From Okeania sp. (GTDB lineage: Bacteria; Cyanobacteriota; Cyanobacteriia; Cyanobacteriales; Microcoleaceae), in NCBI RefSeq assembly GCF_035285525.1, contig NZ_JAYKGW010000227.1, forward strand, positions 1 to 27,055: 27,055 nt of DNA. The letters are read 5' to 3'. The position numbers were made by a program, and so were the translations under genes. The notes under the pieces are model-generated. The model was not told the origin of the DNA. It saw only the letters and a program-made list of their open reading frames with translations, and searched no databases. Below are positions 6,650-21,249 of the stretch, piece after piece. The stretch's first letter is position 1; every line of letters begins with the position of its first letter.

Positions 6650-6892
6650 AAGGCAAAAGTATCGGTAAAATTCAAGAACCTAGGGGTTTGGTCTCCAATT
6701 TTTCGGGAACCGTACCCTATACAAACTAAGAACTTTCCCCAATACTGATGGTACACCCTTATTCTCCAAAGCCAGTTGAATAGTTATAAATAACGAGGGA
6801 GGAGTCAGGAGTTAACCCACCCCTAACCCCTCCCAGGAGGGGAAAAAGAAGAAACAAGTTTTTTTATCATTGATTATCCGGACATGATATTA

Positions 6893-6913
6893 CTGATAAC
6901 TGATAACTGATAA
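6893..6913. repeat. STRR-type heptamer tandem repeat (CTGATAA x3)
   Basis: Direct reading. The array ends 9 nt before the ATG at 6923. The same repeat occurs in the gene-proximal orientation at 26112-26128, upstream of the minus-strand gene that ends at 25993. Confidence 0.85.
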
Positions 6914-6922
6914 CTGAAGAAA

Positions 6923-7777
6923 ATGTCTATCTCAAAAAATCAATCATCAATCAAAATAGGCAGAATAATTCTGTGGATAGGTGTAGTTTTAACTGTCATA
7001 TTTTGCCTAGCTCCTGTTTTATGGCAATTACTAACTTCCTTCAAAACTAATGAGGCAATATCAGCAGTTCCTAATGTCTACTTTCCTTCCCTCAACCAAC
7101 TAACTTTTGACCACTATCTCAGTCTCGGTTCGGATTTTCTGCGCTATATTTTTAATAGTGCTTTTGTTTCGATTATTTCCACAATAATTTGTTTAGGAAT
7201 AGGAGCGCCTGCTGCTTATACTTTAGCCCGATTAAAAATACCAGGAGAAAATATTATTATTGCCTCTGTTTTAATAGTCAGTCTGTTTCCTTATGTCTTG
7301 TTATTTTTAGGACTATTAGAAATTATTAGAACTCTTGGTTTAGGTAATAATTATATATCCCTAATTATTCCTTACACAGGCATTAATTTACCTCTAACAA
7401 TTCTAGTTTTAAGAAGCTTTTTTCAACAGTTACCAAAAGACATAGAAGACTCTGCCAAAATAGATGGTTATAACACAATTTCTATGTTGTGGAATATTGT
7501 TTTACCTCTAACAATTCCCGCATTAGTAACTACAGGAATTTTAACCTTTATTTTTGCTTGGAATGAATTTATTTTTGCCCTGACTTTCATTACTCGTTCA
7601 GAAATGTATACTATTCCCGTTGCAGTCGCTCAAATAGGTGGTACTTCTATATTTGAAATTCCTTATGGACCTATTGCTGCAGCCACAGTAACAGGTACAT
7701 TTCCTTTAGTAATTTTAGTATTAATCGCTCAACGGCGAATTGTTCAAGGTATTACAGCAGGTGCTGTTAAAGGTTAA
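6923..7777 (+). CDS. carbohydrate ABC transporter permease (MalG/UgpE-like)
   Basis: 284-aa ORF with multiple TM segments. EAA-type loop EDSAKIDGYNTISMLWNIVLPL. Confidence 0.9.
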   Translation: MSISKNQSSIKIGRIILWIGVVLTVIFCLAPVLWQLLTSFKTNEAISAVPNVYFPSLNQLTFDHYLSLGSDFLRYIFNSAFVSIISTIICLGIGAPAAYTLARLKIPGENIIIASVLIVSLFPYVLLFLGLLEIIRTLGLGNNYISLIIPYTGINLPLTILVLRSFFQQLPKDIEDSAKIDGYNTISMLWNIVLPLTIPALVTTGILTFIFAWNEFIFALTFITRSEMYTIPVAVAQIGGTSIFEIPYGPIAAATVTGTFPLVILVLIAQRRIVQGITAGAVKG

Positions 7778-7970: not shown

Positions 7971-8207
7971 ATGAAACATCTAGACTTAGATGAAACCAAT
8001 ATTGACTTAACAGTAATTATTAACGAAATTGCTGCTAATCAGTCTGAAATTGTCATTACCCGCCAAGGTTTGCCAGTTGCTCGTATTATTCCTTATACTA
8101 TTTCTGACGCACCGACAAAAAATTATCCATTACGGGGAATGCCAATCAAAATTGCTGCTGATTTTGATGAACCGATGCCTGAACTTTGGGATGCTTTAGG
8201 AAAATGA
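7971..8207 (+). CDS. Phd/YefM-type antitoxin
   Basis: 78-aa ORF with a C-terminal ADFDEPMPELWDAL tail typical of cyanobacterial prevent-host-death antitoxins. It has a 4-nt ATGA overlap with the downstream PIN gene. Confidence 0.75.
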   Translation: MKHLDLDETNIDLTVIINEIAANQSEIVITRQGLPVARIIPYTISDAPTKNYPLRGMPIKIAADFDEPMPELWDALGK

Positions 8208-8599
8208 TTTTACTTGATACTCATGTTTGGTTATGGCTACTTCATAACCCCAGTCAATTATCGGAATCCGCCAAAATCGCAATTGATAGGGAAGAACCCC
8301 ATAATGGTTTGCTAGTATCGCCAATTTCGGTTTGGGAAATTGCGGTTAAATCAAGTATTGGTAAATTGATACTACCTTTACCCATTGATGAATGGTACAA
8401 TTTTGCTTCAACTCATTCTGGTATTGTAATTGAACCCCTGTCTCCACTGGATGCTATTGCCAGTACATCCTTACCTGAGACTTTCCATAAAGATCCAGCA
8501 GATAGAATTTTAGTAGCGATCGCCAGACGATACGGAATTGTTTTAGTAACTTGTGATGTCAAGATTTTGAACTATCCTCATGTCCAAACACTTTGGTAG
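8204..8599 (+). CDS. vapC: PIN-domain VapC toxin
   Basis: ATG at 8204 (the track start at 8186 is a TTG). Conserved acidic positions occur in LLDTHVW, VWEIAVK, HKDPADRILVA and VTCDVKI. Confidence 0.85.
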   Translation: MILLDTHVWLWLLHNPSQLSESAKIAIDREEPHNGLLVSPISVWEIAVKSSIGKLILPLPIDEWYNFASTHSGIVIEPLSPLDAIASTSLPETFHKDPADRILVAIARRYGIVLVTCDVKILNYPHVQTLW

Positions 8600-8624
8600 T
8601 GTAATAGCTGTAGGTTTGGTTGTT

Positions 8625-8818
8625 ATTGTTAAAGGAGGTAATCAATACCATGTTATCCTTCGCACAAAACCTCATTGAGGTAGGCAATGATTACGAATTT
8701 ATTGAGTTATGGGTAGAGCCAGCGGGAAATTTCTGAACGTGGTATTTGCATCCATTATGATGTTGAGGAATTTGAGGAGGAGTTGAAAAACTTCTCTATT
8801 TTTCTAAATATCCATTAA
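8625..8818 (+). pseudogene. Remnant of a second copy of the 10151-10730 toxin/immunity-like cassette
   Basis: 8625-8721 aligns by eye with 10448-10544 (end of the toxin-like ORF, the AAGGAGG site and the start of the immunity-like ORF). The remnant reads MLSFAQNLIEVGNDYEFIELWVEPAGNF then stops. A downstream piece, HYDVEEFEEELKN, resembles 9214-9250. Confidence 0.5.
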
Positions 8819-8844
8819 AATTAAGTAAATTTAGGATTATAATA

Positions 8845-9084
8845 ATGAGCAATACAATAGTTAGCGATAGAGGACAAATAACAATCCCTGAAGAAATTAG
8901 GAACTACCTTAAACTGAATGCAGGGAGTAAAATAGAATTCGTCATTGATGAACAGGGAGAAGTTAAAATAATTCCTCTAAAATTCTCTGTGGAAGACTTG
9001 TCCGGTATCCTACATCATCTGGGAATTGAACAAGCAACCATTAAGGATATGGAAAATGCAATCCAGGAGGCAGCTAATGATTGA
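8845..9084 (+). CDS. AbrB/MazE/SpoVT-family antitoxin
   Basis: 79-aa ORF with SDRGQITIPEEIRNYLKLNAGSKIEFVIDEQGEVKIIPL, a swapped-hairpin AbrB-type DNA-binding motif. It overlaps the following decayed PIN start. Confidence 0.8.
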   Translation: MSNTIVSDRGQITIPEEIRNYLKLNAGSKIEFVIDEQGEVKIIPLKFSVEDLSGILHHLGIEQATIKDMENAIQEAAND

Positions 9085-9272
9085 AGTTGATACCAATATT
9101 TTAAGTTCGCTATTTGACTAGAGATGATCAATTACAGTGGGAAAAAGCACTAGAGATTATTAGAGAAAATCAGCCATGTTTTGTTTCTAATGTGGATAGC
9201 CGTCTTTTATCTTATGATCTTGAGGAGTTTGAGGAAGACATTAAAACTTTGCAGGAAATGGGTAGGTTATGA
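9077..9272 (+). pseudogene. vapC: Decayed vapC (frameshifted, truncated) fused to a 3' remnant of the immunity-like gene
   Basis: MIEVDTNILSSLFD then a stop at 9119-9121. It continues in another frame as RDDQLQWEKALEIIRENQPCFVSNV (PIN N-terminal region). It then joins gtggatagccgtcttttatct (9192-9212), which matches 10693-10713 with one mismatch. Confidence 0.6.
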
Positions 9273-9379
9273 TTGTTATCAGTCTAATACAAACTTTAGT
9301 AAGCTACAACTCTGGGTAGCGATCGCTAATAATATGTTAAAATCCAAATAAGCCTATTTATTGTATTTGAAAATTAGTT

Positions 9380-9706
9380 ATGTCTAAAACATCTACAATT
9401 ACAGAACACATTGAAATTACTCCAGGAATTTGTGGTGGAAAACCTCGGATTGCTGGCCATCGAATTAGAGTAGAAGATATTGTTATCTGCCATGAAAAAA
9501 TGGGTTTTTCACCAGATGAAATTGTCTCTCAATATCCTAGTATTACTTTAGCTGATGTTTATGCTGCTTTGACTTATTATCACGATCATTTAGAAGAGAT
9601 TAGGCAGCAAATTTTGGAGGATGAAGAATTTGCTAGAGCAATGCAAGCTGAAACTCCTTCTTTAGTGGCAAAAAAATTACGAGAAAGTTATGGCAGAAAA
9701 GATTAA
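9380..9706 (+). CDS. DUF433-domain protein (antitoxin-like)
   Basis: 108-aa ORF with the ITPGICGGKPRIAGHRIRVEDIV signature of DUF433. It overlaps the next gene by 17 nt. Confidence 0.8.
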   Translation: MSKTSTITEHIEITPGICGGKPRIAGHRIRVEDIVICHEKMGFSPDEIVSQYPSITLADVYAALTYYHDHLEEIRQQILEDEEFARAMQAETPSLVAKKLRESYGRKD

Positions 9707-10025
9707 ATTTCATCTAGATGAAAATGCTCCTAATGCAATAGCTGGTGGTTTAAGGCGACGAAATATTGATGTAACTACTACTTCTGAGGCTAGTTTAATT
9801 TCTCTGTCAGATGAAGAACAATTGATATTTGCTACGAATCAAAATCGGGTTATTTTTACTCAGGATAGAGATTTTTTGCGACTGCATTATGCTGGTTTTT
9901 CACATAGTGGAATTGCTTATTGTGTTAAGGGCAGTCGTTCAATAGGTGAAATTTTACGCGGACTAATTCTGATTTGGGAAGTATTGGAACCTGAAGATAT
10001 GATTGGAAAAGTTGAGTTTTTGTAA
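9690..10025 (+). CDS. DUF5615-family PIN-like nuclease (toxin-like partner of DUF433)
   Basis: 111-aa ORF containing KFHLDENAPNAIAGGLRRRNIDV and FTQDRDF. The DUF433/DUF5615 pairing is a recurrent two-gene module. Confidence 0.7.
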   Translation: MAEKIKFHLDENAPNAIAGGLRRRNIDVTTTSEASLISLSDEEQLIFATNQNRVIFTQDRDFLRLHYAGFSHSGIAYCVKGSRSIGEILRGLILIWEVLEPEDMIGKVEFL

Positions 10026-10150
10026 TCTAAAAGGTTTTGCTAGAAAGCGATCGCTTCTAAAATCTGGTTGGTTTAGGAAGGAGTAATTGCCTCTTGATAA
10101 CAACTATTCTTAGCAAAAGATTGTATAATTTAGTAATGATGTAGATTTCC

Positions 10151-10501
10151 GTGAATGGTATTAACCGCGAATTAATTTCCCATCCGAGAACTAGCTTATT
10201 TGATAAACACCTTCCTGGTACGCCTCAAGTAGCAAGACTATTGAGGAAGGAAGGAAAAGCCCATGTTTTTAAAGATCGTGCTACAATGGAATTTGTCGTG
10301 GGGGCTATTATTCAAAGGGGAGAACTAACAGGAGTTGAGGATGAAAATGATGACTACGAACGTTATGGACTTTATTTTGACGAACCGATAGGTTATCAGA
10401 TTAGAGCAGATGGTAGCAGTATTCCACTTTATTATGCTGAAATAAAAATTGTTAAAGGAGGTAATTTATACCATGTTATCCCTCCCACAAAACCTCGTTG
10501 A
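10151..10501 (+). CDS. Hypothetical protein, possible orphan toxin C-terminal domain
   Basis: 116-aa ORF with only a GTG start and no obvious SD, so it may be 5'-truncated. It overlaps a small downstream ORF by 29 nt. I recognised no family. Confidence 0.45.
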   Translation: MNGINRELISHPRTSLFDKHLPGTPQVARLLRKEGKAHVFKDRATMEFVVGAIIQRGELTGVEDENDDYERYGLYFDEPIGYQIRADGSSIPLYYAEIKIVKGGNLYHVIPPTKPR

Positions 10502-10730
10502 GGTAGGCAATGATTGGGAATTTATTGAGTTATGGGTAGAGCCAATTGTTTTTCCGCCTCGCATTTTGATGTTAGCTGGTGGCAAACAAGGAAATTTTTG
10601 TATTTATGATGCTACTGCTAACTACAAACCTTTGTTTGAGAGCGCTATTTATGATGAAGCCCACTCGTGGTTAGTTGAAGATGATTATGAGCGGGTGGAT
10701 GGCCGTCTTTTATCTGGGGAATTTTTTTAG
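10473..10730 (+). CDS. Hypothetical small acidic protein, possible immunity/antitoxin partner
   Basis: ATG at 10473 is preceded by AAGGAGG (10455-10461); the track start at 10449 is a TTG. 85 aa. Its 5' and 3' ends recur as remnants at 8650-8736 and 9192-9212. Confidence 0.5.
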   Translation: MLSLPQNLVEVGNDWEFIELWVEPIVFPPRILMLAGGKQGNFCIYDATANYKPLFESAIYDEAHSWLVEDDYERVDGRLLSGEFF

Positions 10731-10869
10731 CATTGGGGCGATCGCTCCTCAAATCTGGTTTGTTGACGAAGGAGCGATCGCTCTTGTTTAAAAATTGGGA
10801 TGGGATATGAGGGAGCTGTTGCCTTTCGTTAACTAATATGTTATAGTTTATAATTTTCAGAAAATTGAT

Positions 10870-11214
10870 AGCTGTAGGTTGGGTTGTTTGCGTTAGCATT
10901 GCGGAGCATGGAACGTTAGCGGAGCTTATCCGTAGGATCAACCCAACATTAGTAGGGTTTTGTTGGGTTTCACTCCGTTCAACCCAACTACATTTGCGTA
11001 AGTCCTAATAAATCCGTATATCCGTGGCCAAATCACTGTCTAGCTGTAGGTTGGGTTGTTTGCGTTAGCATTGCGGAGCATGGAACGTTAGCGGAGCTTA
11101 TCCGTAGGATCAACCCAACATTAGTAGGGTTTTGTTGGGTTTCACTCCGTTCAACCCAACCTACATTTGCGTCAGTCCTAATAAATCCGTATATCCGTGG
11201 CTAAATCACTGTCT
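10870..11214. repeat. Near-identical tandem duplication of a 172/173-bp structured unit
   Basis: Copy 1 is 10870-11041 and copy 2 is 11042-11214. I see only three differences: one 1-nt indel and two substitutions. Each unit holds a long hairpin (gtaggttgggttg ... caacccaac) and a second hairpin (gttgggtttcactccgttcaacccaac). A third unit starts (agct) and overlaps the TAG stop of the gene ending at 11217. Confidence 0.9.
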
Positions 11215-11216
11215 AG

Positions 11217-12632
11217 CTAAAGCTTCTTAATCCCCCTTAAAGCCATAATTTTCTGAATAATAACAGTGAATCCTGCTCCCATAACACCAAAAAATAAACT
11301 TAAAAATAGGGTTTGAGTCAAAGGATGGAGATGAAAATCAGGCAACAGAGGTTTTTCCGGTTCTTGGGCAATTATATATGGAGCAACTGTGGCACCAACT
11401 GCTCCTGACGTCAAACCTACACCCATAATAGCTATGGTATTTTGGAAAGAGCGATCGCTTTCTGTTTGTTCGATATCTACTCTACCCTGAATAGCTGTCA
11501 TCGCTTTTTCTAGTAATGTAGCTCCATGCTGAAAGTAGCCTAAGTCCGATTGGAGTTGTTCTCTAAATAAGCGATAGTCTTCATCAAAAAATTGAGACAG
11601 GAAACTAAGATTTTCTCCTGGAAGTTGGCTTTGAATATCATTTATTTCTCGTTTATAGTTTTGGGCGTTGATATCAATAGTTAAGCGATAGTTATCTAGC
11701 TCACGAGTAAATTGATTATATGATAAATATTTTTGGGGAATCTCTTTTAAGTATTTTTTGAATTGATTTAATTCTTTTTCAGTTAGCTTTTTATCAACTG
11801 GCATTCCCTGGAAAATTTCCTGAATATAGGATTCAATAGCTAGATACTCCTTGCGAAGTACATCGTGGACTTGACGACTAAGTTTGTAAGCTGTGACTAC
11901 TTTGTTTAAATAACAAAATAGATTCACAAAGGATGAATAATAGTGGGTAAATTTCCTGTCGGTTTCAGTTTCACAGAATATCCAAACCACTACATGGCAG
12001 TAGTCCTTTCCTTGAGTAGGAACACCGTATTCAAAAATAGGACTGCCAAATAATTGACTTTCTCGATAAAAGTCAGGACAAGAATATTCGTTAGGAATAA
12101 ATCCTCTCAAACAATTATCTGCCAGTTCCCTAAGTTTTTGGCGATTTTGTAAAGATTTCCTCGGCAACCACTGTTTTTCCTGTGTGTACCAAACTGTTAA
12201 GAGCAAAGTTTGACCAAGAGAACTCCCTATTTCAGTAGGCATTAAGCATCCTGAAGGATTAAGAAGTTTCAGAAAGTTCGGGTTTAGGGGATTTGTTTTT
12301 TTCCCATTCTCGTCTAACTCGGGACGGCGAATATTGAGAGCGAGGGTGTAGGTATCGTGAATGCGGATGGGAGCAGCAACTCCCGTAATAGGGAGTTGTG
12401 TCCCATCTAGGAAGACTTGACTCTCAAAATGGAGAGCCACATCATCCTCTGTTTTATGTTTGAGCAAGTCAACGCGATATCCTATTTGCTCCTCAATTTC
12501 TAGGGGTTGGGTAAGGCCAAATTTCCGGGACAGAATGGTATTGCATTTGTCCCAGAGTAGGTTAGGGCGATCGCTTTCTTTTAAATGAAAAGCAAATAAA
12601 TGGACATTAGGAGCATAGACTTTTTTAATCAT
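11217..12632 (-). CDS. Candidate membrane effector: soluble N-domain, coiled coil, two C-terminal glycine-zipper TM helices
   Basis: Long ORF. The first ATG is at 12632 (MIKKVYAPNV) and overlaps the upstream stop as ATGATTAA; the track start at 12665 is a TTG. TM1 IAIMGVGLTSGAVGATVAPYII is at 11370-11435 and TM2 LTQTLFLSLFFGVMGAGFTVIIQ is at 11253-11321. A heptad-rich region precedes them. I recognised no family. Confidence 0.8.
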   Translation of the reverse strand: MIKKVYAPNVHLFAFHLKESDRPNLLWDKCNTILSRKFGLTQPLEIEEQIGYRVDLLKHKTEDDVALHFESQVFLDGTQLPITGVAAPIRIHDTYTLALNIRRPELDENGKKTNPLNPNFLKLLNPSGCLMPTEIGSSLGQTLLLTVWYTQEKQWLPRKSLQNRQKLRELADNCLRGFIPNEYSCPDFYRESQLFGSPIFEYGVPTQGKDYCHVVVWIFCETETDRKFTHYYSSFVNLFCYLNKVVTAYKLSRQVHDVLRKEYLAIESYIQEIFQGMPVDKKLTEKELNQFKKYLKEIPQKYLSYNQFTRELDNYRLTIDINAQNYKREINDIQSQLPGENLSFLSQFFDEDYRLFREQLQSDLGYFQHGATLLEKAMTAIQGRVDIEQTESDRSFQNTIAIMGVGLTSGAVGATVAPYIIAQEPEKPLLPDFHLHPLTQTLFLSLFFGVMGAGFTVIIQKIMALRGIKKL

Positions 12633-12999
12633 TGTTCTGATTTTGGTCAGGTTGTGCTGATTCAAATTCAGTTGAGTCGGTTCTTTCGGATAGTTTTTCC
12701 TTAACCTTTTCGCTCAATTCTGGGAAGGTATTGGTGATACGAGCAGATTCATTTGCCTTCGAGGGTGGGACTTTTGTCAACTCTTTAGTATTTTGTAGAT
12801 TCTCTAGTCTTATAAGAGCATCAACTATAGACGGTCTTGTTTTACACCAATCTCCAAGAATGAGGTCGGCATTTTTTGGGGGATCATTCTCTAGGGGAGC
12901 CAAGGTTTGCTGCAAGTCTTGGAGGTCAGCAGTAGAAAACAGTTCAGGCTCGGTTTCTAAAAGAAGGGGGAAATTTTGGAGAAAAGGGTTAGTAATCAT
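12625..12999 (-). CDS. Small acidic hypothetical protein (operon member)
   Basis: 124-aa ORF with ATG start. The N-terminal half is acidic and the tail is low-complexity (SERTDSTEFESAQPDQNQNND). It lies 75 nt downstream of the CHAT gene and is translationally coupled to the next gene. Confidence 0.6.
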   Translation of the reverse strand: MITNPFLQNFPLLLETEPELFSTADLQDLQQTLAPLENDPPKNADLILGDWCKTRPSIVDALIRLENLQNTKELTKVPPSKANESARITNTFPELSEKVKEKLSERTDSTEFESAQPDQNQNND

Positions 13000-13074
13000 T
13001 TTTAATCAAGATTTTAAATTATAAGTTGACTGGTGATGCTTTTGAGTCAAATGGACTGAACAAAAGCTTAAAGC

Positions 13075-16000
13075 TTACTTTCCAACAGTGCAGAAAGCTG
13101 CCCAGTGGTAAGGATCTTGGTAGAGTTGTCTGTCCGAAGGAAGGAAATATAGATATCCTTGAATCCTTTGGGCAAGCTCTTCTTCTAATTTTAACTTACT
13201 TGTCCACTTTTGTAGTTCTGCTACTGTAACATCCCGCAACCATAGTTGAGCTTGCTTGAGAGCCATAGCAACAGTTAGGCCAGACTTGAGGTTTTGATAA
13301 AACTTGATGAGTAAAAAAGCTGCGGATACTTGATTCACTGACCACAAACTGCTGACAACATTTGACGCACCTGCATAGAGGAAAGCACTGGGTAAACCAA
13401 TATATTCATCACTCCAGGATGTTAAGTCAATCAATCCTGTTTCACAAGCAGAGAGGGTTGCGAGGCGACATTGATTGAGGTTGAATCCAAAGATTTCTGC
13501 GAGAGTAAGTCTCCCATCTTTTTGAACATCATCTTTAGCTAGAGAAAGTGCAGAGGCATTGGCTATACCTAAGTTAAAGTTGCCATGACAGGAAAAATGA
13601 ATACAGTGGGATGACTGGAGGTGGGAGTTAGTTTTGACTTTTGCTTTCTTAGCATCTTTTCCAACTAAGACATCGACTGAATCAAAGTTGGAAAGAATTG
13701 CTTGTACTTCTATGTCTGCATAGATTAGATCCTCTGTCGGGTTTTGAACAGCAAACAGTTGGCTGAAGTAGGGACGTTCTCGTTTTTGAGTAAGTTGCAA
13801 TAGTTGGTTACTAGGAGCATAACTTACTCCTCCACTAAAGCGCTCGATAAGCAGATCGCCATTTGCTAGGGGCATAGCATGGAGAGGAAATAGATGTAGG
13901 TAGCGATGAGGAATCAGGATAAGACGGTTACACTTAATTCCTTGTTTGTCAAAGATGTTATCTATTGTTGTTAAGAGGCGATCGATTTCTAGGATATCAG
14001 CCAAATCTTTAAGACTAGAAGCTAAATTATTTCTCCACTGCTTTTTCTGCCGACGATACCCATCTAAATAGTCACCTGCCCAATCAATTAAAGACTTAAG
14101 TTCTTCAGCGGATGATTCTTGAACTATAGGTTGAACGCCATTGTTAGTTACGATAAAAGTTAATATTTTATCTTTAACAAGATACCATTGGATAATGACA
14201 GTCTGTTCGTCAATAAGATTTTGAATATCTCTATAGGAAATTAGTTCTACCCTCTGAGTTAGGTTGAAACTGGGATCTATACGTTGAATTTGATCTAGTA
14301 CCTCATTTAGCTGCTGTTGTGACTCCTGTAATTCTTGCTGTAGTCGCTTCTCTGAATTTTCTGACGCTCGTCTCTGCCTATTTAATAGTTGAAACTCATT
14401 TCCTGATAGTTGCTTTCTATCTATTTGTAACCGTTTTTCCAGTGATGTTATATTTCGCCGTAGCGAGTCTAGCTGAGTAATTATTTCTTGGGGAATATTC
14501 CCTTTTGGATAAAGATCGCTTCTGGCTAGACGCTCCACTAGGTTACGAGTTTTACTGCGCTCCACAATTTCGATGGCTTTATCAACCTGTCCTAGATTAA
14601 TGTATGCTTGCACCTGATTTTCATAAACCTCCATTGCCCCTTCCATAATCTCTTGGCGACGCTCATCAGTGTTTACCCAACTGCGGCTGATTTCGGCCGC
14701 AATCATGGCTGTTTCATAATTTTCAGTTGCTAGTTGCCAATTTCCCTTATCAAAGTATAAGTCACCTAATGTGTAGGCAGTTATAAAATGGTTAGAGGGA
14801 TTTGCTTCAATAGTGTAAATTTGAAGAGCTTTTTGCAAGCTAGCAATAGCAAATTCGATATTTTCTGCTTTGTCTCCTTTGATTCTGTCCCTGTAGGCAG
14901 TGCTGATATTATTTTGAATTCTTGCCCAGTCGTAGGGAAAGTTATTTTTTGTGTAAATTTGGAGAGCCTGTTCATATGCAGCAATAGCGAATTCAATATT
15001 TTCTGCTTTGTCTTCTTTGATTCTCTTTGCGTAAGCAGTGCCGATATTGTTTTGAGTGCTTGCCCAGTCGTAAGGAAAGTTGTTTTGTGTGTGAACATGG
15101 AGCGCTTGTTCGTATGCAGCAATAGCGGATTCAATATTTTCTGCTTTCTCTCCTATGATTCTATGGGAGTAGGCAATACCAAGGTTGTTTTGAGTGCTTG
15201 CCCAGTTGTCAGGAAAGCTGTTTTCAGTGAAAACTTGGAGAGCTTGTTCGTATGCAACAATAGCAGATTCGATATTCTCTGATTTGTTTCCTTTGATTCT
15301 GTCAGTGTAAGCACTGCCAAGATTGTTTTGAGTTTCTGCCCAGTTGTATGGGAAGTCAATTTTGTCATTAACTTGGAGAGCTTGTCCGTATGCAGCAATA
15401 GCAAATTCAATGTTCTCTGCTTTATCTCCTTTGATTCTGTCAGTGTAAGCATTCCCAAGATTGTTTTGAGTTTCTGCCCAGGGGTGGGGGTACTGAGTTT
15501 TAGTGCGAACCTGGAGAGCTTTTTTATATGCACTAATAGCAGATTCAATATTTTCTGCTTTGTCTCCTCTGATTCTTTTTTTGTAAGCACTCCCAAGATT
15601 GTTTTGAGTAGATGCCCATTCAATACGGAACTTAGTTTTGGTGTAAACCTGGAGAGCTTCTTGATGTAAATTAATTGCAAATTCGATGTTCTTTGCTTTG
15701 TTGCCTCTGATTCTGCGACTGTAGGCAACCCCGAGATTGTTCTTAGTCATTGCCCACTGCTTGGGAAACTTGTTTTTGGTGCGAACTTGAAGAGCTTGTT
15801 CGTATGCAGCAATAGCAAATTCAATATTCTCTGCTTTGTTGCCTCTGATTCTGTTTCTGTAGGCCATACCAAAATTGTGCTTAATTTTTGCCCATTTTTC
15901 TGGATACCTCTTTCTGGTAAGGATTGTTTCTGCTATATGATAACCTGCGATTGCAATTTCTACATTAACTGCTCTATTTCCCCGAGTAAATTTCATTATG

Positions 16001-16374
16001 TGGAAGGAAAACTCCCAAATTGCTTCAGCAATGCGTTCGGCAGTTTCCGGTTTAGCTTCTGGTTTAACTTCAGAAAATACAGAAGTTGCCCAGATTTTCA
16101 AGGTATCAATAAAGTCATCATCAAGCTCTTGTAGTAATACCTTGACAGATTGATCCCCCCTCACATCCCCTCTACTCTCAAGAATCCTTTGTAATATTTC
16201 AACCAAAAAATCTAGCTGAGATTTAAGGTGATCTGGTAATTTTTCTCTGGTTTCAGAGCTTGCCTTTAAATTCTTGAAATTCAAGTCTACAGCCAAAAAT
16301 CTGTCCTGTAGAAGTGAAGGTTTTAAAATGATTGCTATAGGTAGGAAAATATCGTGCAAACTTTCTTTTAACAT
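13075..16374 (-). CDS. TPR-repeat CHAT-domain (caspase-like) protease
   Basis: 1099-aa ORF with ATG start. It has nine 46-aa repeats ([32 protein letters not shown]...), a coiled coil (LEKRLQIDRKQL...QQELQESQQQLNEVLDQIQ) and a C-terminal CHAT domain. The His motif is IHFSCHG (His930 codon 13585-13587) and the Cys motif is TLSACETG (Cys977 codon 13444-13446). Confidence 0.95.
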   Translation of the reverse strand: MLKESLHDIFLPIAIILKPSLLQDRFLAVDLNFKNLKASSETREKLPDHLKSQLDFLVEILQRILESRGDVRGDQSVKVLLQELDDDFIDTLKIWATSVFSEVKPEAKPETAERIAEAIWEFSFHIMKFTRGNRAVNVEIAIAGYHIAETILTRKRYPEKWAKIKHNFGMAYRNRIRGNKAENIEFAIAAYEQALQVRTKNKFPKQWAMTKNNLGVAYSRRIRGNKAKNIEFAINLHQEALQVYTKTKFRIEWASTQNNLGSAYKKRIRGDKAENIESAISAYKKALQVRTKTQYPHPWAETQNNLGNAYTDRIKGDKAENIEFAIAAYGQALQVNDKIDFPYNWAETQNNLGSAYTDRIKGNKSENIESAIVAYEQALQVFTENSFPDNWASTQNNLGIAYSHRIIGEKAENIESAIAAYEQALHVHTQNNFPYDWASTQNNIGTAYAKRIKEDKAENIEFAIAAYEQALQIYTKNNFPYDWARIQNNISTAYRDRIKGDKAENIEFAIASLQKALQIYTIEANPSNHFITAYTLGDLYFDKGNWQLATENYETAMIAAEISRSWVNTDERRQEIMEGAMEVYENQVQAYINLGQVDKAIEIVERSKTRNLVERLARSDLYPKGNIPQEIITQLDSLRRNITSLEKRLQIDRKQLSGNEFQLLNRQRRASENSEKRLQQELQESQQQLNEVLDQIQRIDPSFNLTQRVELISYRDIQNLIDEQTVIIQWYLVKDKILTFIVTNNGVQPIVQESSAEELKSLIDWAGDYLDGYRRQKKQWRNNLASSLKDLADILEIDRLLTTIDNIFDKQGIKCNRLILIPHRYLHLFPLHAMPLANGDLLIERFSGGVSYAPSNQLLQLTQKRERPYFSQLFAVQNPTEDLIYADIEVQAILSNFDSVDVLVGKDAKKAKVKTNSHLQSSHCIHFSCHGNFNLGIANASALSLAKDDVQKDGRLTLAEIFGFNLNQCRLATLSACETGLIDLTSWSDEYIGLPSAFLYAGASNVVSSLWSVNQVSAAFLLIKFYQNLKSGLTVAMALKQAQLWLRDVTVAELQKWTSKLKLEEELAQRIQGYLYFLPSDRQLYQDPYHWAAFCTVGK
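14790..15985. repeat. Intragenic 138-bp (46-codon) tandem repeat array, about 9 units
   Basis: The ENIE(F/S)AI motif recurs at residues 137/183/229/275/321/367/413/459/505 of the CHAT protein, exactly 46 aa apart. DNA-level similarity between units generates several stop-free shadow ORFs on both strands. Confidence 0.85.
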
Positions 16375-16389
16375 ATTAATTACTACATA

Positions 16390-16490
16390 AATAATTTTCT
16401 GAATAGAGAAAGCTTCTTTTACAGATCATCGCGAAAACTTTGTTTTAGTGCCTCAATAAATTTCTGAATAGAGAAAGCTTCTTTTACAGA
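16390..16490. repeat. 36-nt direct repeat pair (16390-16425 and 16455-16490, one mismatch) at the junction of the ClpN-TPR and CHAT genes
   Basis: aataa(t/a)tttctgaatagagaaagcttcttttacaga is read twice, 65 nt apart. See the finding at 16374-16490. Confidence 0.9.
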
Positions 16491-17903
16491 ACGTTGACTA
16501 TTGATAAAGTTTTCAAGACTTGTTTCTTGTGTTTTACTAAAAATGTTTGTATAGTATTCGGCTTCGCTAGGTTTTGAGGACATCTCCTGCCAATACCTGA
16601 AAGAAAATTTTCCTGTCTTATCTAGGTTTGAGCGAGCTCTGGACAAGTTCCGTTTAGTGGCTTTGCACTTTTCAGGGGGGTCTTGTTTGTCATAAACAGA
16701 TAAAGCTAATTGATAGGCATGAACAGCTTTTTTCAGATTCTCAGTTTTATTGTCAATTCTTTGAATATAAGCATCGCTAAGATTACATTGAGTTTCTGCC
16801 CAATCAACCGGGTAATCCGCTTTAGTATAAACTTTCAGAGCTTCTAGGAATGCAGCAATAGCAGATTCAATGTTTTGTGCTTTGTCTCCTTTAATTCTGC
16901 TGCTGTAGGCAAGGCCAAGATTATTTTGAGTCATTGCCCAGTCGATAGGAAGGTTGTTTTGGGTACGAACTTCCAAAGATTTTTTGTATGCAGCAATGGC
17001 AAATTCAATATTTTCAGCTTTATCTCCAATGATCCTGTTAGTGTAGTAGCTATGGCCGAGATTGTGTTGAACAATTGCCCAAATTTCAGGATGATAGTTG
17101 GGACTCAAGAATGTGGACATTATTTCATAACCTGCAATGCTAATTTCTACATTAGCTGCTTTATTGCCCAAAGGAAACTCCCTAATGAGGTTACTGAAGC
17201 CGAAAATAAATGTAGCAAAATTTTCCACTACACTCACCTCTGCTTCCGACATAGTAGTTGCAAGATTTCGTAATACGTTAGCAAAGTTAAGATCGAGTTT
17301 ATCCAAATTAGCTTCTAGGAATGGATAAACTACTTCGGGGTTGCCATAGCTTTTTAGGGTAATCTGCAATACCTCCGACAAAAAATCCTGATAATCTTGA
17401 GGTGAGTAATTAGATGAAGTAACAGGTTGTGGATTTTCTTTCCTCTCGAATAGTTCAACAAAGCTCACATGAGTAATTTCATTGAAAATTTCTACTGGTT
17501 GTACCCCCATTTTTTCAAAGATTTTGACTTCTATTCCTTTTGGGAGATCGTTAGTTAAACCTAACAACACTGATAACAAATTTTCCGTGCAGACATTTTG
17601 GGCTTTTGAGCGTCTCGCCTCTTCTAAAGCTAACTCTAGAATTTTTTTAGCTCTTGGACTAAAAGGTATTTCTTCAGTATTTCTGCCTCCAGGCCCTCTA
17701 CCAACAATTTTCTCTACCTGAACACGGGCATCCTTCAGATTTATTCCCAGAGATTTGAGAACCTGTGCAGCTATGCCAGTATCTTCCGCAATCAATCCTA
17801 AAAGAATATGCTCTCCCCCAACAAAATTATGTCCCATACGTTGAGATTCTTGTTGGGCAAGCATAATCGCCTTAATCGCTTTTTCACTAAATCGCTCAAA
17901 CAA
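16419..17903 (-). CDS. ClpC-like N-terminal (Clp R) domain fused to a TPR-like repeat scaffold; no AAA+ module
   Basis: 494-aa [73 protein letters not shown] closely resembles the start of cyanobacterial ClpC as I remember it. It starts with TTG at 17903, 8 nt after a GGAGG (17912-17916). Residues from about 175 onward parallel the N-terminal module of the CHAT protein, followed by four 46-aa repeats. Confidence 0.9.
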
Positions 17904-17965
17904 TTTTCCTGCCTCCCGTTTCGTTATCTCAGTTTCCTAGTTTATATGAAAGTTATTCAACTATT

Positions 17966-18029
17966 ATGACAGCCTAGAAGGCTGTGTTACAATTTTATAG
18001 CTATGACAGCCTAGAAGGCTGTGTTACAA
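17966..18029. repeat. Twin 27-nt hairpin units (ATGACAGCCTAGAAGGCTGTGTTACAA x2)
   Basis: Units are at 17966-17992 and 18003-18029. The stem is ACAGCC/GGCTGT. The same twin recurs at 18463-18527. Confidence 0.85.
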
Positions 18030-18044
18030 AAGTTTTAAATTTAA

Positions 18045-18183
18045 TTAAGCAATAGTTAAAACAGAATATTGAACAATTTTTGGTAATTCAATTATTACAA
18101 AATAACCAGGAGGATAAAGATATTCTTATCCAGTTTCATCAAGTATTATTAAATCACCATCTTTTTTGCATCTTTATCAATCA
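18045..18183 (-). pseudogene. Decayed duplicate of the 77-aa gene at 18543-18776
   Basis: It aligns with 18543-18680. It reads ...KKDGDLIILDETG(stop)EYLYPPGYFVIIELPKIVQYSVLTIA, against DGDLRIVDKSGEDYLYSVDYFVIIELPKIVQDSVLTIA in the intact copy. There is also an upstream frameshift. Confidence 0.6.
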
Positions 18184-18206
18184 GTTAAAATAACTTAAGT
18201 TTCAAT

Positions 18207-18381
18207 TTAAAGACTTGTTTTGTTGGTGAGTAGGTTTAATTGTTGTGGAAATAATTTGTCTGCCACTAGCTGCTTGTTTTTTTCTAAATCTTCAACCATA
18301 GCGTGTAAATTATAATTAAAAGATTTAGCATATTCTTCTCGGTATTTATAAATTTCTGCTAATACTTCATCATGCCACATA
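18207..18381 (-). pseudogene. Possible frameshifted small gene (MWHDEVL / EIYKYREEYAKSFNYNLHAMVEDLEKNKQ...)
   Basis: The ATG at 18381 has an AGGAG 12 nt upstream, but the frame stops after 11 codons. Removing one T near 18360-18361 would give a continuous 57-codon ORF ending at 18207. Confidence 0.35.
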
Positions 18382-18462
18382 ACTTATTTAATCTCCTATT
18401 AGCTTCAGTTGATTTTGTTTATCCATAATTACAGCGGATTGCAGATTAGTATGGTACAGATT

Positions 18463-18527
18463 ATGACAGCCTGGAAGGCTGTGTTACAATTTTATAGCTG
18501 ATGACAGCCTGGAAGGCTGTGTTACAA
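18463..18527. repeat. Twin 27-nt hairpin units (ATGACAGCCTGGAAGGCTGTGTTACAA x2)
   Basis: Units are at 18463-18489 and 18501-18527, directly downstream of the 77-aa gene. They are part of a duplication of roughly 0.5 kb matching 17966-18183. Confidence 0.85.
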
Positions 18528-18542
18528 AAGTTTTAAACTTAA

Positions 18543-18776
18543 TTAAGCAATAGTTAAAACAGAATCTTGCACAATTTTTGGTAATTCAATTATTACAAAA
18601 TAATCAACAGAATAAAGATAATCTTCTCCACTTTTATCAACTATTCTTAAATCGCCATCTTTTGCTGCTTCTTCATCAATTAAAGCTACATAAATTTTAT
18701 GTAATTCCAAAGAAGCAGGATAATCTTTATTATTAATACAAACTGCAAATTTAGTTTCTGATTTCAGATTATTCAT
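18543..18776 (-). CDS. Small conserved hypothetical protein
   Basis: 77-aa ORF with ATG start. A decayed paralog 0.5 kb away implies it is a real gene family. No function recognised. Confidence 0.55.
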   Translation of the reverse strand: MNNLKSETKFAVCINNKDYPASLELHKIYVALIDEEAAKDGDLRIVDKSGEDYLYSVDYFVIIELPKIVQDSVLTIA

Positions 18777-18833
18777 AATTTTTAACCCAAATAAAATTAT
18801 AGATTACTTTTGAATTTTGACTTGAACATAACT

Positions 18834-19604
18834 CTACATTTGCCAAGCTTTCCAAAATGTATAAATAGCCAAAATTACCAACAAACTCTGAAAAGCAAAA
18901 CTGACAAATGAACTAGGCAACTTCGGCAGAAAACGAGTGCTAATTTGAGCGCCGATCAAACCTCCAAAACCTAAAAACAAGCCTCCGAAAAACACAATAT
19001 TGCCATTCAAATAATGACCGAAAGCAGCAGAAATAGAAGTAACAACAATTACACCTAAACTTGTTTGAATAGCAACTTTTATAGGTTCCCCAAGTAAAAG
19101 AATTTGCAGAGGTACCATTATTACTCCACCACCAACCCCAAATAAACCAGCTAATAATCCTCCTGTTCCCCCAGTAATAATTCTAGCCAGAGTAGCATTT
19201 CCCCATTGCTGTTTTTCACCATCTTTTTGTCTAGCTATAACCCGCTTGCGTAACCCGAACAAATAAATATTAATCAACATTAGTAAACCAAAACCCAATA
19301 ATAATAAACTCGAAGATAATTGTTCCGCCAAATAAACCCCTATTTGGGCAGCGAATAATGCTGGCAATGCTAACAAAAGAACTTTTTGAGGTTGAATGAA
19401 ACCCATACGCCAATTTTGCAGAGTACCAGAAGTGGCTGTAATTGTAATCGCTAAAGCGCTAGTTGCGACTGCTTGTATAGGTTCATATCCCAAAGTTACT
19501 AACAGCGGAACCATAACTGTACCACCGCCAATTCCTAAAAATCCAGCGAGAATACCGGAACCAAGACCACCTAATCCTAAAATCAAAAGGTTTGCGGGAA
19601 TCAT
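18834..19604 (-). CDS. TauE/SafE (TSUP) family membrane permease
   Basis: Polytopic ORF with duplicated Gly-rich motifs GFLGIGGGTVMVPLL and GLFGVGGGVIMVPL. The first ATG is at 19604; the track start at 19610 is a TTG. Confidence 0.85.
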   Translation of the reverse strand: MIPANLLILGLGGLGSGILAGFLGIGGGTVMVPLLVTLGYEPIQAVATSALAITITATSGTLQNWRMGFIQPQKVLLLALPALFAAQIGVYLAEQLSSSLLLLGFGLLMLINIYLFGLRKRVIARQKDGEKQQWGNATLARIITGGTGGLLAGLFGVGGGVIMVPLQILLLGEPIKVAIQTSLGVIVVTSISAAFGHYLNGNIVFFGGLFLGFGGLIGAQISTRFLPKLPSSFVSFAFQSLLVILAIYTFWKAWQM

Positions 19605-20184: not shown

Positions 20185-21249
20185 ATGGCAAAACTGCAAT
20201 TAAAAAATCTCAGAAAACAATTTGCTGCTAATGTTATTCCTGTTAAAGATATAAATATCGAAGTTGGTGATGGAGAATTTTTAACTTTATTAGGACCTTC
20301 TGGATGTGGAAAATCAACCCTACTAAGACTTATTGCAGGTTTAGAAACACCCAGTCAAGGTCAAGTCACAATTGGCGATCGCGATGTCACAAATCTAGCA
20401 CCGGGCGATCGTAATATTGCTATGGTGTTTCAAAGTTATGCTCTCTATCCCCACATGACTGTCTTTGAAAATATTGCTGCTTCCCTGAAACTTCGCAAAA
20501 TACCCCCAGATCAAATTCAGCAACGAGTTAATCATGTTGCCCAAAAATTAGATTTAGTAAATTTATTAGCTCGCAAACCCAAGCAAATGTCTGGAGGACA
20601 AAGGCAACGGGTAGCATTAGCTCGTTCATTGGTACGGAACCCGGAGGTATTTTTATTAGATGAACCTCTGAGTAATTTAGATGCGTTATTACGGGAACAG
20701 GTACGGGCGGAGTTAAAACAGTTATTTAATTCTCAACAAAAACCGGTAGTTTATGTTACTCACGATCAAACAGAAGCTATGACTTTATCTAGTAAAGTAG
20801 CAATTTTATCTGATGGTTATTTACAACAAATTGATAGACCCGATGAAATTTATACTCGTCCGGCAAATAAATTTGTGGCAGGTTTTGTTGGTAGTCCGCA
20901 AATGAATTTACTCACTCTTAAATGTGAGGAAAATTATGCTATTTTCGGCGATTTTAAAATACCTTTGCCAGATTTTTCTGTGAGAAAGAAACAAATTACT
21001 CTGGGTATTAGACCGGAAGATATACGTTTTTCTTCCACCGAAAATTTGGGAATTACTATTAGAGGAAAAGTGGTTTTAGTAGAATATTTAGGCAAGGAAA
21101 AATTATTAATTTTACAAGTAGAAAATTCAGCAGAAAATATTAAAGTTATAGCTCCTTATGACCAAACTTGGGATGATTTAATAACTTTAGAATTACCTAC
21201 TAAACACATTCATTGGTTTGATGTAGATTCTGGCGATCGCATTCAATAG
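20185..21249 (+). CDS. ABC transporter ATP-binding protein (MalK/UgpC/MsmK type, sugar importer ATPase)
   Basis: 354-aa ORF with Walker A GPSGCGKST, signature MSGGQRQRVALAR, Walker B FLLDEPLSNLD and H-loop VTHDQ. It has a C-terminal regulatory (TOBE-like) extension. Confidence 0.92.
   Translation: MAKLQLKNLRKQFAANVIPVKDINIEVGDGEFLTLLGPSGCGKSTLLRLIAGLETPSQGQVTIGDRDVTNLAPGDRNIAMVFQSYALYPHMTVFENIAASLKLRKIPPDQIQQRVNHVAQKLDLVNLLARKPKQMSGGQRQRVALARSLVRNPEVFLLDEPLSNLDALLREQVRAELKQLFNSQQKPVVYVTHDQTEAMTLSSKVAILSDGYLQQIDRPDEIYTRPANKFVAGFVGSPQMNLLTLKCEENYAIFGDFKIPLPDFSVRKKQITLGIRPEDIRFSSTENLGITIRGKVVLVEYLGKEKLLILQVENSAENIKVIAPYDQTWDDLITLELPTKHIHWFDVDSGDRIQ

Follow-up and report, generated by a model that had tools for sequence, protein, structure and literature searches.

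The window, a 27,055-nucleotide stretch of a contig from the cyanobacterium Okeania sp. (NZ_JAYKGW010000227.1), holds an operon of four closely spaced genes on one strand that includes a catalytically intact CHAT protease. Upstream of the protease gene lies ClpN-TPR, whose product joins a ClpC-type N-domain to a TPR scaffold. The features of the locus are the following.

17904..18833, no strand given: non-coding upstream region, in which a segment of ~200 nt with hairpin repeats is duplicated (repeat search, families D1 and D2)
17913..17918, minus strand: Shine-Dalgarno-like GGGAGG (direct sequence reading; 8-nt spacer to the TTG start)
16419..17903, minus strand: ClpN-TPR open reading frame, 494 aa, intact
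17445..17903, minus strand: ClpC-type N-domain, aa 1-153, two four-helix repeats (Pfam Clp_N, PDB 5gui, AF2 and Foldseek, identity to the ClpC N-terminus)
17679..17903, minus strand: N-domain repeat 1, aa 1-75, well conserved (73% identity to the ClpC N-terminus)
17403..17444, minus strand: flexible connector, aa 154-167 (pLDDT below 50 at residues 155-161; end of blastn homology to locus L089)
17169..17402, minus strand: pre-TPR helical module, aa 168-245 (tblastn matches; alignment to the adjacent CHAT protein)
16614..17168, minus strand: four TPR-like units of 46 aa each, aa 246-430 (identity to the CHAT protein, AF2 helix pairs, 46-aa period)
16419..16613, minus strand: helical tail, aa 431-494, and stop codon (AF2 pLDDT 42-59; weak alignment to P0028)
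13075..16374, minus strand: TPR-CHAT protease, 1099 aa (Pfam CHAT, E 2e-54)
12625..12999, minus strand: small acidic protein, 124 aa, conserved partner (58% identity to its L001 counterpart; seen in many loci)
11217..12665, minus strand: membrane protein, 482 aa, or 471 aa from the ATG at 12632 (homologues, AF2, Foldseek, hydropathy)

The start codon of ClpN-TPR is a TTG at 17903-17901. The first-pass annotation had proposed a TTG start with a well-placed GGAGG, and the GGGAGG at 17918-17913 with its 8-nt spacer confirms it; the low, controlled expression that it read from this start would be conjecture. The N-terminus restored by this start, MFERF, is canonical for ClpC. The public gene call of the protein (P0001) begins at Met14, by which helix 1 is lost. 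In the upstream region, where the repeat search covered positions 17850-18900, the duplicated hairpin-bearing segment may be regulatory. Promoter and terminator scans gave counts at the level of shuffled sequence, and the Rfam and tRNA scans were empty.

The head of ClpN-TPR matches Pfam Clp_N (PF02861) with an E-value of 2.2e-20 and 73 bits versus a gathering cut-off of 20.7, and its top solved relative is the N-terminal domain (NTD) of Arabidopsis ClpC1 (5gui, E 7.7e-52). NCBIfam ClpB, ClpA and ClpK matches span only residues 5-172 and are far under their cut-offs, and the Pfam search of ClpN-TPR found no AAA+ family, i.e. no D1/D2 modules, after the N-domain. The proposal that these modules are replaced by the TPR scaffold common to the CHAT protease holds, with 47% identity between the two scaffolds. 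The AF2 model has a pLDDT of 82.9 and eight helices across residues 7-153. In Foldseek it aligns with the whole 148-residue chain of 5gui at TM 0.90, rmsd 1.8 Å and 55% identity, and with Mtb ClpC1 NTDs at TM 0.82-0.91, a fold match to a predicted model in which the pLDDT of repeat 2 is 67-84. The model points to a complete ClpC-NTD fold, a pseudo-twofold arrangement of two four-helix repeats. Compared with the N-terminus of P0242, a cyanobacterial-type ClpC, repeat 1 is 73% identical and repeat 2, diverged in sequence but with its fold predicted to be retained, 37%. The first-pass annotation had described the domain as almost a copy of the ClpC N-terminus, with a degenerate second repeat, at 17469-17903. 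The ClpC type stands, and the wording is slightly generous for a repeat 1 at 73% identity. "Degenerate" applies to the sequence of repeat 2 and not to its fold, which is predicted to be intact (TM 0.90 for the model). The 3' limit has to be moved slightly, from 17469 to nt 17445 (about aa 153).

The ClpC NTD is the docking site for adaptors, pArg-substrates and antibacterial cyclic peptides (PMC12583610), and NblA, the gene of which is carried by cyanophages, binds ClpC (PMC12695635). On both points, Clp N-domains as adaptor and substrate docking sites and the ClpC-NblA link with its cyanophage genes, these reports agree with the first-pass annotation. The cyclomarin-binding contacts in Mtb ClpC1 are F2, F80, K85 and E89 (PMC5347014). 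Our alignment shows these residues of the cyclic-peptide/adaptor groove kept in ClpN-TPR as F2, F81, K86 and E90; the adaptor-binding surface, the loss of which had been raised as a point against the idea, thus has its groove residues present. We take T31, T81 and T105 to be positions of the pArg pockets (B. subtilis/S. aureus numbering). Roles in these pockets of the ClpC NTD have been assigned to E32, E106 and T7 (PMC12583610). The pocket glutamates E32/E106 are kept in ClpN-TPR as E31/E107, and T106 is also kept. Substitutions are T7 to S6, T31 to G30 and T81 to S82, such that the first GTE motif has Gly for Thr and both Thr7-type positions are Ser.

Mycobacterial ClpC2 and ClpC3 are similar to ClpN-TPR in that each fuses a ClpC N-domain copy lacking AAA+ modules to a different functional module. 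ClpC2, a paralogue of the ClpC1 NTD, senses and sponges cyclomarin, rufomycin and pArg and converts their binding into a response (PMC10030653, PMC13345244), and its structure (8ad9) matches the ClpN-TPR head with E 2e-10 and a Foldseek TM of 0.77. However, ClpC2 has an N-terminal DNA-binding region followed by a C-terminal NTD-like domain and regulates its own transcription, whereas in the cyanobacterial protein Clp_N is N-terminal and precedes TPRs in a CHAT-protease operon, with no HTH found by Pfam.

Beyond the connector, residues ~168-430 of ClpN-TPR are 47% identical to residues 55-318 of the TPR-CHAT protein encoded downstream (47-52% for the TPR units), the start of which lies 44 nt past the ClpN-TPR stop. 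The same pre-TPR module opens most TPR-CHAT proteins of the cassette, as found by tblastn at most loci. A simple split of one gene into ClpN-TPR and TPR-CHAT is ruled out because each of the two genes carries its own pre-TPR module. The tail of ClpN-TPR aligns weakly with the post-TPR helical region ahead of CHAT in relatives, and may be the site of a lost CHAT domain. Pfam labels such as PG_binding, Glyoxalase and YycE, among others, that would give TPR relatives "variable N-terminal domains" were discarded as spurious repeat matches.

The TPR-CHAT protease has an intact His930/Cys977 dyad in the motifs HFSCHG and LSACETG. Its NCBIfam match to Csx29 (E 1e-23) reaches 83.7 bits, far under the cut-off of 300, and no cas genes, gRAMP/Cas7-11 included, are found among the window ORFs, so that a type III-E Csx29 system is rejected. 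Type III-E Craspase is nevertheless similar in that a TPR-CHAT protein (Csx29) is encoded with mid-sized and small non-enzymatic proteins (Csx30/Csx31), as candidate substrates. It differs in its input, which is a guide RNA there and a protein domain here, and, within the searches made, the partners at our locus show no relationship to Csx30/31. For the 124-aa and the 482-aa protein, no family was found in Pfam, NCBIfam, PADLOC or a PDB profile search. In the latter an alpha/beta N-domain is accompanied by three long helices and, at the C-terminus, two hydrophobic segments (AF2 pLDDT 85.9), with hydropathy peaks at 410-432 and 449-477. Its 410 homologues carry no Pfam domains and all named ones are cyanobacterial. 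Foldseek gave weak CorA/ZntB-like matches (E 4e-3 to 7e-3, TM at most 0.25). Membership in CorA/ZntB/Mrs2 is not supported, with no CorA match in Pfam or PDB sequences and no GMN motif after TM1, where the sequence is IMGVGLTSGAVG; only the layout is similar. With an alpha/beta domain in the cytoplasm, long helices and two TM segments at the C-terminus, its predicted layout would resemble that of the CorA-type effectors of type III CRISPR systems, and the neighbourhood of a caspase-like protease gene and a gene for a membrane-acting protein recalls bacterial gasdermin and other protease-activated membrane effectors. Unlike these, the 482-aa protein has no gasdermin or CorA Pfam match, and its cleavage is a proposal. 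It is presumed to be the effector of the cassette.

TPR-CHAT, the small protein and the ~480-aa two-TM protein form a core cassette that is present in about 70 of 80 cyanobacterial species-representative loci, and Clp_N occurs in none of these ~70. Close paralogues have an ~80-aa helical head exactly at the Clp_N position. Clp_N occupies a variable N-terminal "head" slot of a conserved chassis, replacing the common short helical head. Clp_N heads were found in three of 83 loci, which represent only two sources because one of them (L002) is identical to the window. The coupling of Clp_N to CHAT takes three forms. At L001 and L003 it is a direct ClpN-TPR-CHAT fusion, with the same small and membrane genes behind it, and both fusions are disrupted (in L001 by an IS element, in L003 by in-frame stops). 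At the present locus it is the scaffold common to ClpN-TPR and TPR-CHAT. At an unrelated locus, L084, the gene order is Trypco2 / CHAT-EAD1 / ClpN-EAD1, and the two EAD1 copies match each other with E 2e-17. This threefold recurrence lends indirect support to a functional Clp_N-CHAT link, as do the head position on the conserved chassis, the purifying selection on the head and the kept groove residues and pocket glutamates. The layout of ClpN, pre-TPR and TPR recurs at 40-53% identity in P0006, P0028, P0012, P0093 and P0071, one of which is from Trichodesmium. In an exhaustive HMMER census, the ranking was dominated by multi-ClpN repeat proteins; among the top 150 representatives, Clp_N is combined with this scaffold only in P0001 and P0093, and with CHAT in none. 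Stand-alone single- or multi-ClpN proteins abound (1274 representatives at E<=1e-30), and the gene contexts of multi-ClpN proteins at L092-L094 were uninformative.

Proteins with ATPase-less ClpN have been placed in predicted conflict systems of multicellular bacteria by Kaur, Burroughs, Iyer and Aravind (2020, eLife), together with caspase-superfamily proteases and shared adaptor modules. ClpN repeats occur there in variants of the MoxR-vWA ternary systems, in which the vWA protein usually has an N-terminal beta-propeller; we infer that ClpN takes a sensor slot in these vWA proteins. According to the "EAD principle" of the same authors, EAD1 mainly recruits effectors to the core system, and L084 fits their scheme. 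The window differs from the systems of Kaur et al. 2020 by the absence of NTPase, vWA and EAD, by a coupling through the pre-TPR/TPR scaffold or direct fusion, and by its small and two-TM partner proteins, which are not described there.

The head has a dN/dS of 0.27 versus its L089 orthologue, with 0.42 in the diverged half and 0.22 in the flanking SBP gene, and is under purifying selection. Homology to the stand-alone 2xClpN gene of L089, a locus of a close relative, ends in blastn at window position 17438, and the 5' leader is common to both genes. A neighbour-joining tree of the heads is star-like, each head being nearest to canonical ClpC; repeated capture and slow evolution of ClpC are not told apart by this pattern. 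A word-indexed search that used just the head as query yielded for the most part short fragments and pieces of plant ClpC, and the genome's own clpC was not among them.

Our tentative proposal, to which we give somewhat less than an even chance, is that ClpN-TPR is an accessory subunit whose head mimics ClpC and serves as the input or bait of a conflict cassette made of the TPR-CHAT protease and a membrane effector. The ClpC-like head would offer the docking surfaces of the ClpC NTD, a hydrophobic groove and polar pockets, and would capture a would-be ClpC ligand. Candidates would be adaptor-like proteins, peptides and unfolded segments that come from phages or competitors or arise under stress. 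Occupancy of the head would be relayed via the pre-TPR/TPR scaffold, probably by hetero-association with TPR-CHAT, and this signal would switch on the CHAT protease. The protease would then act on the small and/or the membrane protein, which would lead to membrane damage and growth arrest. In favour of this reading are the complete ClpC-NTD fold with its kept surface residues, the tight operon with an intact CHAT, the conserved core cassette, the head swap, the three modes of coupling, the ClpN repeats of the vWA systems, the selection on the head, and the precedents of ClpC2 and of phage ClpC adaptors. A possible defence role is read from the architecture. Against it, a search of PADLOC-DB 2.0 with the four operon proteins gave nothing significant, the sole match being a chance-level Csx20 (E 0.008). 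A search of IMG/VR for a phage origin of the cassette found nothing. Several points count against this reading of the head. The tail of ClpN-TPR looks like the truncation of a former ClpN-TPR-CHAT gene. The TPR part is not closest to the adjacent CHAT protein (47% versus up to 58% for paralogues elsewhere). In the pArg pockets, Gly stands for the Thr of the first GTE motif and Ser for Thr at both Thr7-type positions. Clp_N heads are rare (3/83 loci), both directly fused copies are disrupted, and EAD1-linked domains are usually effectors rather than sensors.

In a more specific form of the proposal, which we judge unlikely, the head is a true integrated decoy that would mimic the adaptor-docking domain of ClpC, an essential unfoldase, and trap ClpC hijackers, i.e. 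phage adaptors of the NblA-like or Gp53-like kind or the ClpC-NTD-directed cyclic peptides of competitors, the trapping firing TPR-CHAT and in turn the CorA-like membrane effector. The idea is plausible by analogy, with precedents in mycobacterial ClpC2 and phage ClpC adaptors. Gp53 of phage SPO1 is an adaptor-like modulator of ClpCP, and cyanophage NblA proteins are relevant too. As in plant NLR integrated decoys (e.g. RRS1-WRKY), a copy of a host hub domain sits on an immune-type scaffold with the executing partner next door, the immune role being a conjecture for our locus; unlike these, the ClpN-TPR locus has no NLR/STAND NTPase. The decoy concept has already been raised for the bacterial sensor bNACHT11 (PMC11702601), for which no host-domain copy was identified, whereas the copied domain in ClpN-TPR is obvious.

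The head could instead be an output. Set free after firing, for example by CHAT cleavage at the connector (aa ~154-167), it would titrate ClpC adaptors or substrates, or bind ClpC, with deregulated ClpCP proteolysis and cell arrest as the result. The low-confidence connector between head and scaffold and the abundance of stand-alone ClpN proteins are in line with this, as is L084, where ClpN-EAD1 adjoins CHAT-EAD1 and EAD1 mainly recruits effectors (Kaur et al. 2020). The ClpT proteins of plants are an example of free Clp_N domains with the ability to act on the Clp machinery. However, a conserved candidate effector, the membrane protein, is already found in the ~70 Clp_N-free loci, a stoichiometric titrating domain would be a weak effector, and ClpN in the vWA-protein variants of Kaur et al. 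2020 is read as being in a sensor-type position. We consider an effector role of the head improbable. To a brake we assign a similarly low probability: ClpN-TPR, as a protease-less paralogue, would hold back TPR-CHAT via the common scaffold, and its head would tie the stability or occupancy of the brake to the state of Clp, disturbed proteostasis then freeing the protease. The pre-TPR/TPR module shared by the two proteins, one of them without a catalytic domain, is consistent with this, and so are related loci at which tandem scaffold modules, or ORFs made up of the scaffold alone, precede a single CHAT. In resting-state ClpC the NTD touches the M-domains via its pArg pockets, so that docking of a free head on ClpC is conceivable in principle. 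Against this, most cassettes work without any such partner, many of the scaffold-only ORFs in relatives, e.g. at L005, resemble frameshift splits, and nothing points to a toxin-antitoxin-like dependency. Slightly less probable still is a recombination by-product without a dedicated role in the operon, in which the head of a ClpN gene was joined to a truncated TPR-CHAT paralogue: the L089 homology that stops exactly at the domain boundary and includes the 5' leader, a further chimera in L004 (TPR N-terminus fused to an effector C-terminus), the IS insertions and in-frame stops of L001 and L003 and the poorly modelled tail speak for it, but the ORF is intact with a head dN/dS of 0.27, the layout recurs in several distinct proteins, including the one from Trichodesmium, and an independent ClpN-CHAT pairing exists via EAD1.

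Little is known of how the immune and cell-death systems of bacteria perceive what triggers them, and we know of no case in which the "integrated decoy" sensing proposed for bacteria has been tied to a recognisable copy of a host domain. In ClpN-TPR the domain that was copied is unmistakably the docking domain of ClpC, a known hijack target of phages and antibiotics, and its linkage to caspase-like proteases is a repeated one. If true, the decoy reading of the accessory subunit would make it the prokaryotic equivalent of plant NLR-ID immunity, but one that does without an NTPase. This work also defines a widespread, uncharacterised cyanobacterial cassette in which a TPR-CHAT protease is encoded with a small protein and a member of a new family of two-TM proteins. 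The cassette may be relevant to programmed cell death in filamentous bloom formers such as Okeania and Trichodesmium.

Four closely spaced genes lie on the minus strand of the 27-kb window, which comes from the marine filamentous cyanobacterium Okeania sp.:

16419-17903, minus strand, ClpN-TPR, 494 aa
13075-16374, minus strand, TPR-CHAT protease, 1099 aa
12625-12999, minus strand, small protein gene, 124 aa
11217-12665, minus strand, membrane protein gene, 482 aa (471 aa with the ATG at 12632 as start, overlapping the small gene's end)

Reading of the sequence confirmed the earlier proposal of a TTG start with a well-placed GGAGG for ClpN-TPR: the TTG is located 8 nt after GGGAGG, and translation from it yields MFERF, the canonical N-terminus of ClpC. 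Helix 1 would be missing from a public gene call that starts at Met14. In the 930-nt gap upstream of this gene, a segment of ~200 nt is present in two copies (17963-18165 and 18460-18663, 91-98% identity), each containing two hairpin repeats, ATGACAGCCTRGAAGGCTGTGTTACAA. This duplication might represent an operator array, or else a small mobile repeat. Within the TPR-coding regions (14781-16134 and 16875-17273) there are several ORFs of 110-190 aa across both strands; they were rejected as genes because the 138-nt (46-codon) repeat period generates them.

Residues 1-153 of ClpN-TPR, here called the head, constitute a ClpC-type N-domain (Pfam Clp_N, E 2e-20). Among solved structures it is closest to the Arabidopsis ClpC1 NTD (5gui, E 8e-52), with ClpC NTDs from mycobacteria and Bacillus coming next. 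In the AlphaFold model (pLDDT 82.9) the head has eight helices and aligns over the full length of the 5gui chain (TM 0.90, rmsd 1.8 A). Identity to a cyanobacterial-type ClpC N-terminus is 73% for repeat 1 versus 37% for repeat 2. The first-pass annotation was thus right about the domain type and about a second repeat degenerate in sequence, but the fold of this diverged repeat is predicted to be kept. The head is followed by a flexible connector, a helical pre-TPR module and four TPR-like units of 46 residues, and no AAA+ module was detected after it with Pfam or NCBIfam. Pre-TPR module and TPR units together form a scaffold that shares 47% identity with residues 55-318 of the TPR-CHAT protease, whose His930/Cys977 dyad is intact; the view that the AAA+ modules are replaced by a scaffold common to the CHAT protease therefore holds. 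The C-terminal tail is poorly modelled and aligns weakly to the pre-CHAT region of relatives, so the probable ancestor of this gene is a ClpN-TPR-CHAT gene whose protease was lost.

Cyclomarin A contacts F2, F80, K85 and E89 in ClpC1 of M. tuberculosis (PMC5347014), and all four are retained in the head (F2, F81, K86, E90). Each of the two pArg pockets also retains its glutamate: E32 and E106 (PMC12583610) correspond to E31 and E107. By contrast, T31 is replaced by Gly, and both Thr7-type positions are Ser. With these groove residues and glutamates kept, the predicted ClpC-type docking surface does not appear to be lost, a loss that had been named beforehand as telling against a decoy. Ligand docking on the conserved surfaces is a candidate property of the head. 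The best-supported reading, which we hold tentatively, is that the head would serve as an input module mimicking the ClpC docking domain, that the input would pass to the TPR-CHAT protease via their common scaffold, and that the protease would then act upon the small and/or membrane protein. Three precedents make this reading credible. Mycobacterial ClpC2, a paralogue of the ClpC1 NTD, senses and sponges cyclomarin and pArg (PMC10030653, PMC13345244); adaptors enter via the ClpC NTD, which antibacterial peptides hijack (PMC12583610); and phages provide the third, with an adaptor-like ClpCP modulator encoded by SPO1 and NblA, which binds ClpC, encoded by cyanophages (PMC12695635). The strict version, in which the head is a decoy for a phage factor, appears doubtful.

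Clp_N joins CHAT/caspase proteases in three ways: by direct fusion, by a shared TPR scaffold and by a shared EAD1 domain. The pattern is hard to square with coincidence. In loci L001 and L003, a single gene encodes head, scaffold and CHAT, followed by homologues of the small (58% identity) and membrane (61% identity) proteins. Both fused genes, from one metagenomic organism, are disrupted between TPR and CHAT:

L001, 12453-13703, IS element with an ISAZ013-type transposase
L003, 12545-12770, stretch of ~40 codons with four in-frame stops

This could reflect counter-selection of an active system or an assembly error. In an unrelated locus (L084, 4073-7437), Trypco2, CHAT-EAD1 and ClpN-EAD1 are encoded by three adjacent genes, and the two EAD1 adaptor domains are related (E 2e-17). 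Trypco2 has been described as a partner of trypsin-like peptidases, whereas here it lies beside a CHAT protease. A 2xClpN-EAD1 protein was also found. Kaur et al. (2020) remarked in passing on rare variants of ternary conflict systems in which the vWA protein, usually equipped with an N-terminal beta-propeller, carries fused ClpN repeats. The head could instead be an effector perturbing ClpCP; this fits the EAD1 logic (Kaur et al. 2020) but we consider it unlikely. That ClpN-TPR acts as a brake, having the scaffold without the protease, is likewise improbable.

The head is rare in its setting. None of the 80 species-representative loci contains Clp_N; among the loci examined it occurs only in L002 (twin of the window), L001 and L003. 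Close paralogues in Okeania and Moorena have a helical head of ~80 aa (MDEQRIEAYLNLI...) at the exact Clp_N position, so Clp_N is a swapped head on a constant chassis. This conserved module (M[DN]EQR.[EQ]AYL.LI..LL.C..GEE..IL..N.[ED]L.D) is the usual TPR-CHAT head; it is seen at the N-termini of P0002, P0026, P0063, P0087 and L024-L050, sometimes repeated, up to four times (L040). Accession PF27904 is attached to several, though not all, such proteins in the protein index, and our guess is that it corresponds to this head. The ClpN, pre-TPR and TPR architecture was found again in several distinct proteins: a Trichodesmium protein with two near-canonical ClpN domains, P0093, P0071 (with an added DUF3110), and P0006 and P0028. 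Proteins made only of Clp_N repeats, without ATPase, form a very large population (1274 representatives at E<=1e-30), reaching as many as 14 repeat halves and a length of 1762 aa.

A close relative (L089), whose copy of the flanking SBP gene is 88% identical at the nucleotide level, has a stand-alone 2xClpN gene. The second ClpN domain of this gene matches the head at 84% of nucleotides and 78% of amino acids; the match extends over the 5' leader and the divergent second repeat and ends at residue ~155. Comparing this domain with the head gives an overall dN/dS of 0.27, with 0.20 in residues 1-97 and 0.42 in residues 98-148; their dS, 0.45, is close to the value for the SBP gene, whose dN/dS is 0.22. 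The head is under purifying selection. That the ClpN-TPR gene is a recombination by-product is quite improbable given this selection and the recurrence of the architecture. The tandem 2xClpN gene of this relative (L089, 2116-3003, GCA_013332755.1) adjoins its SBP gene and has a DUF433 gene after it, and homology to the window stops at the ClpN/scaffold junction. In Dapis (L005) the complete cassette occupies the interval between SBP and DUF433, so L089 may be what a deletion left behind.

The gene order TPR-CHAT, small ORF and 482-aa family protein is found in ~70 of the 80 loci from the scan of species-representative genomes, in Okeania, Dapis, Moorena, Coleofasciculus, Calothrix, Nostoc, Scytonema, Microcoleus and others. 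The 482-aa family comprises 410 proteins, none with a Pfam domain, and all named members are cyanobacterial. The model (pLDDT 85.9) has an alpha/beta domain followed by three long helices, with C-terminal hydrophobic segments at 410-432 and 449-477. ZntB, CorA and Mrs2 are the best structural matches, yet weak (E 4e-3 to 7e-3, TM <=0.25); the predicted layout is CorA-like, and we do not claim membership of the CorA family. The cassette was not found in viral contigs (IMG/VR) and none of the four operon proteins matched PADLOC, so it is a widespread, uncharacterised, chromosomal cassette. From its architecture of caspase-like protease, repeat array and membrane protein, we infer a conflict or cell-death system. 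Cassette loci are prone to recombination: some have tandem CHAT genes or giant proteins containing as many as four scaffold modules, and IS insertions and in-frame stops occur. In Okeania sp. SIO3B5 (L004, 1422-2402), one chimeric ORF starts with ~190 aa from the N-terminus of the adjacent TPR-CHAT protein and runs directly into the last helix and both TM segments of the presumed effector, the membrane-protein family; this is either a deletion scar or a Rosetta-stone-like connection of scaffold and membrane protein. In the window, the CHAT operon and toxin-antitoxin-like genes lie between a sugar ABC transporter's permease genes and its ATPase gene, an arrangement like an inserted variable island:

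8186-17903, operon and toxin-antitoxin-like modules (flanks 5756-7777 and 20185-21249)
8186-8599, PIN toxin-antitoxin-like module
9380-10025, DUF433+DUF5615 toxin-antitoxin-like module
10151-10501, DUF6972 toxin-antitoxin-like module

Conflict systems with ClpN domains are already known, as are ClpC-NTD paralogues that serve as sensors. What is new is the cassette itself, the coupling of ClpN to this TPR-CHAT/membrane-protein cassette, the head swap and the three coupling modes. The decoy case is tempered by the rarity of the Clp_N head, by the broken fused copies and by a function deduced from sequence and models. Integrated-decoy sensing in bacteria has so far been only a hypothesis, put forward for bNACHT11 (PMC11702601), and ClpN-TPR constitutes a clean, testable candidate for it.
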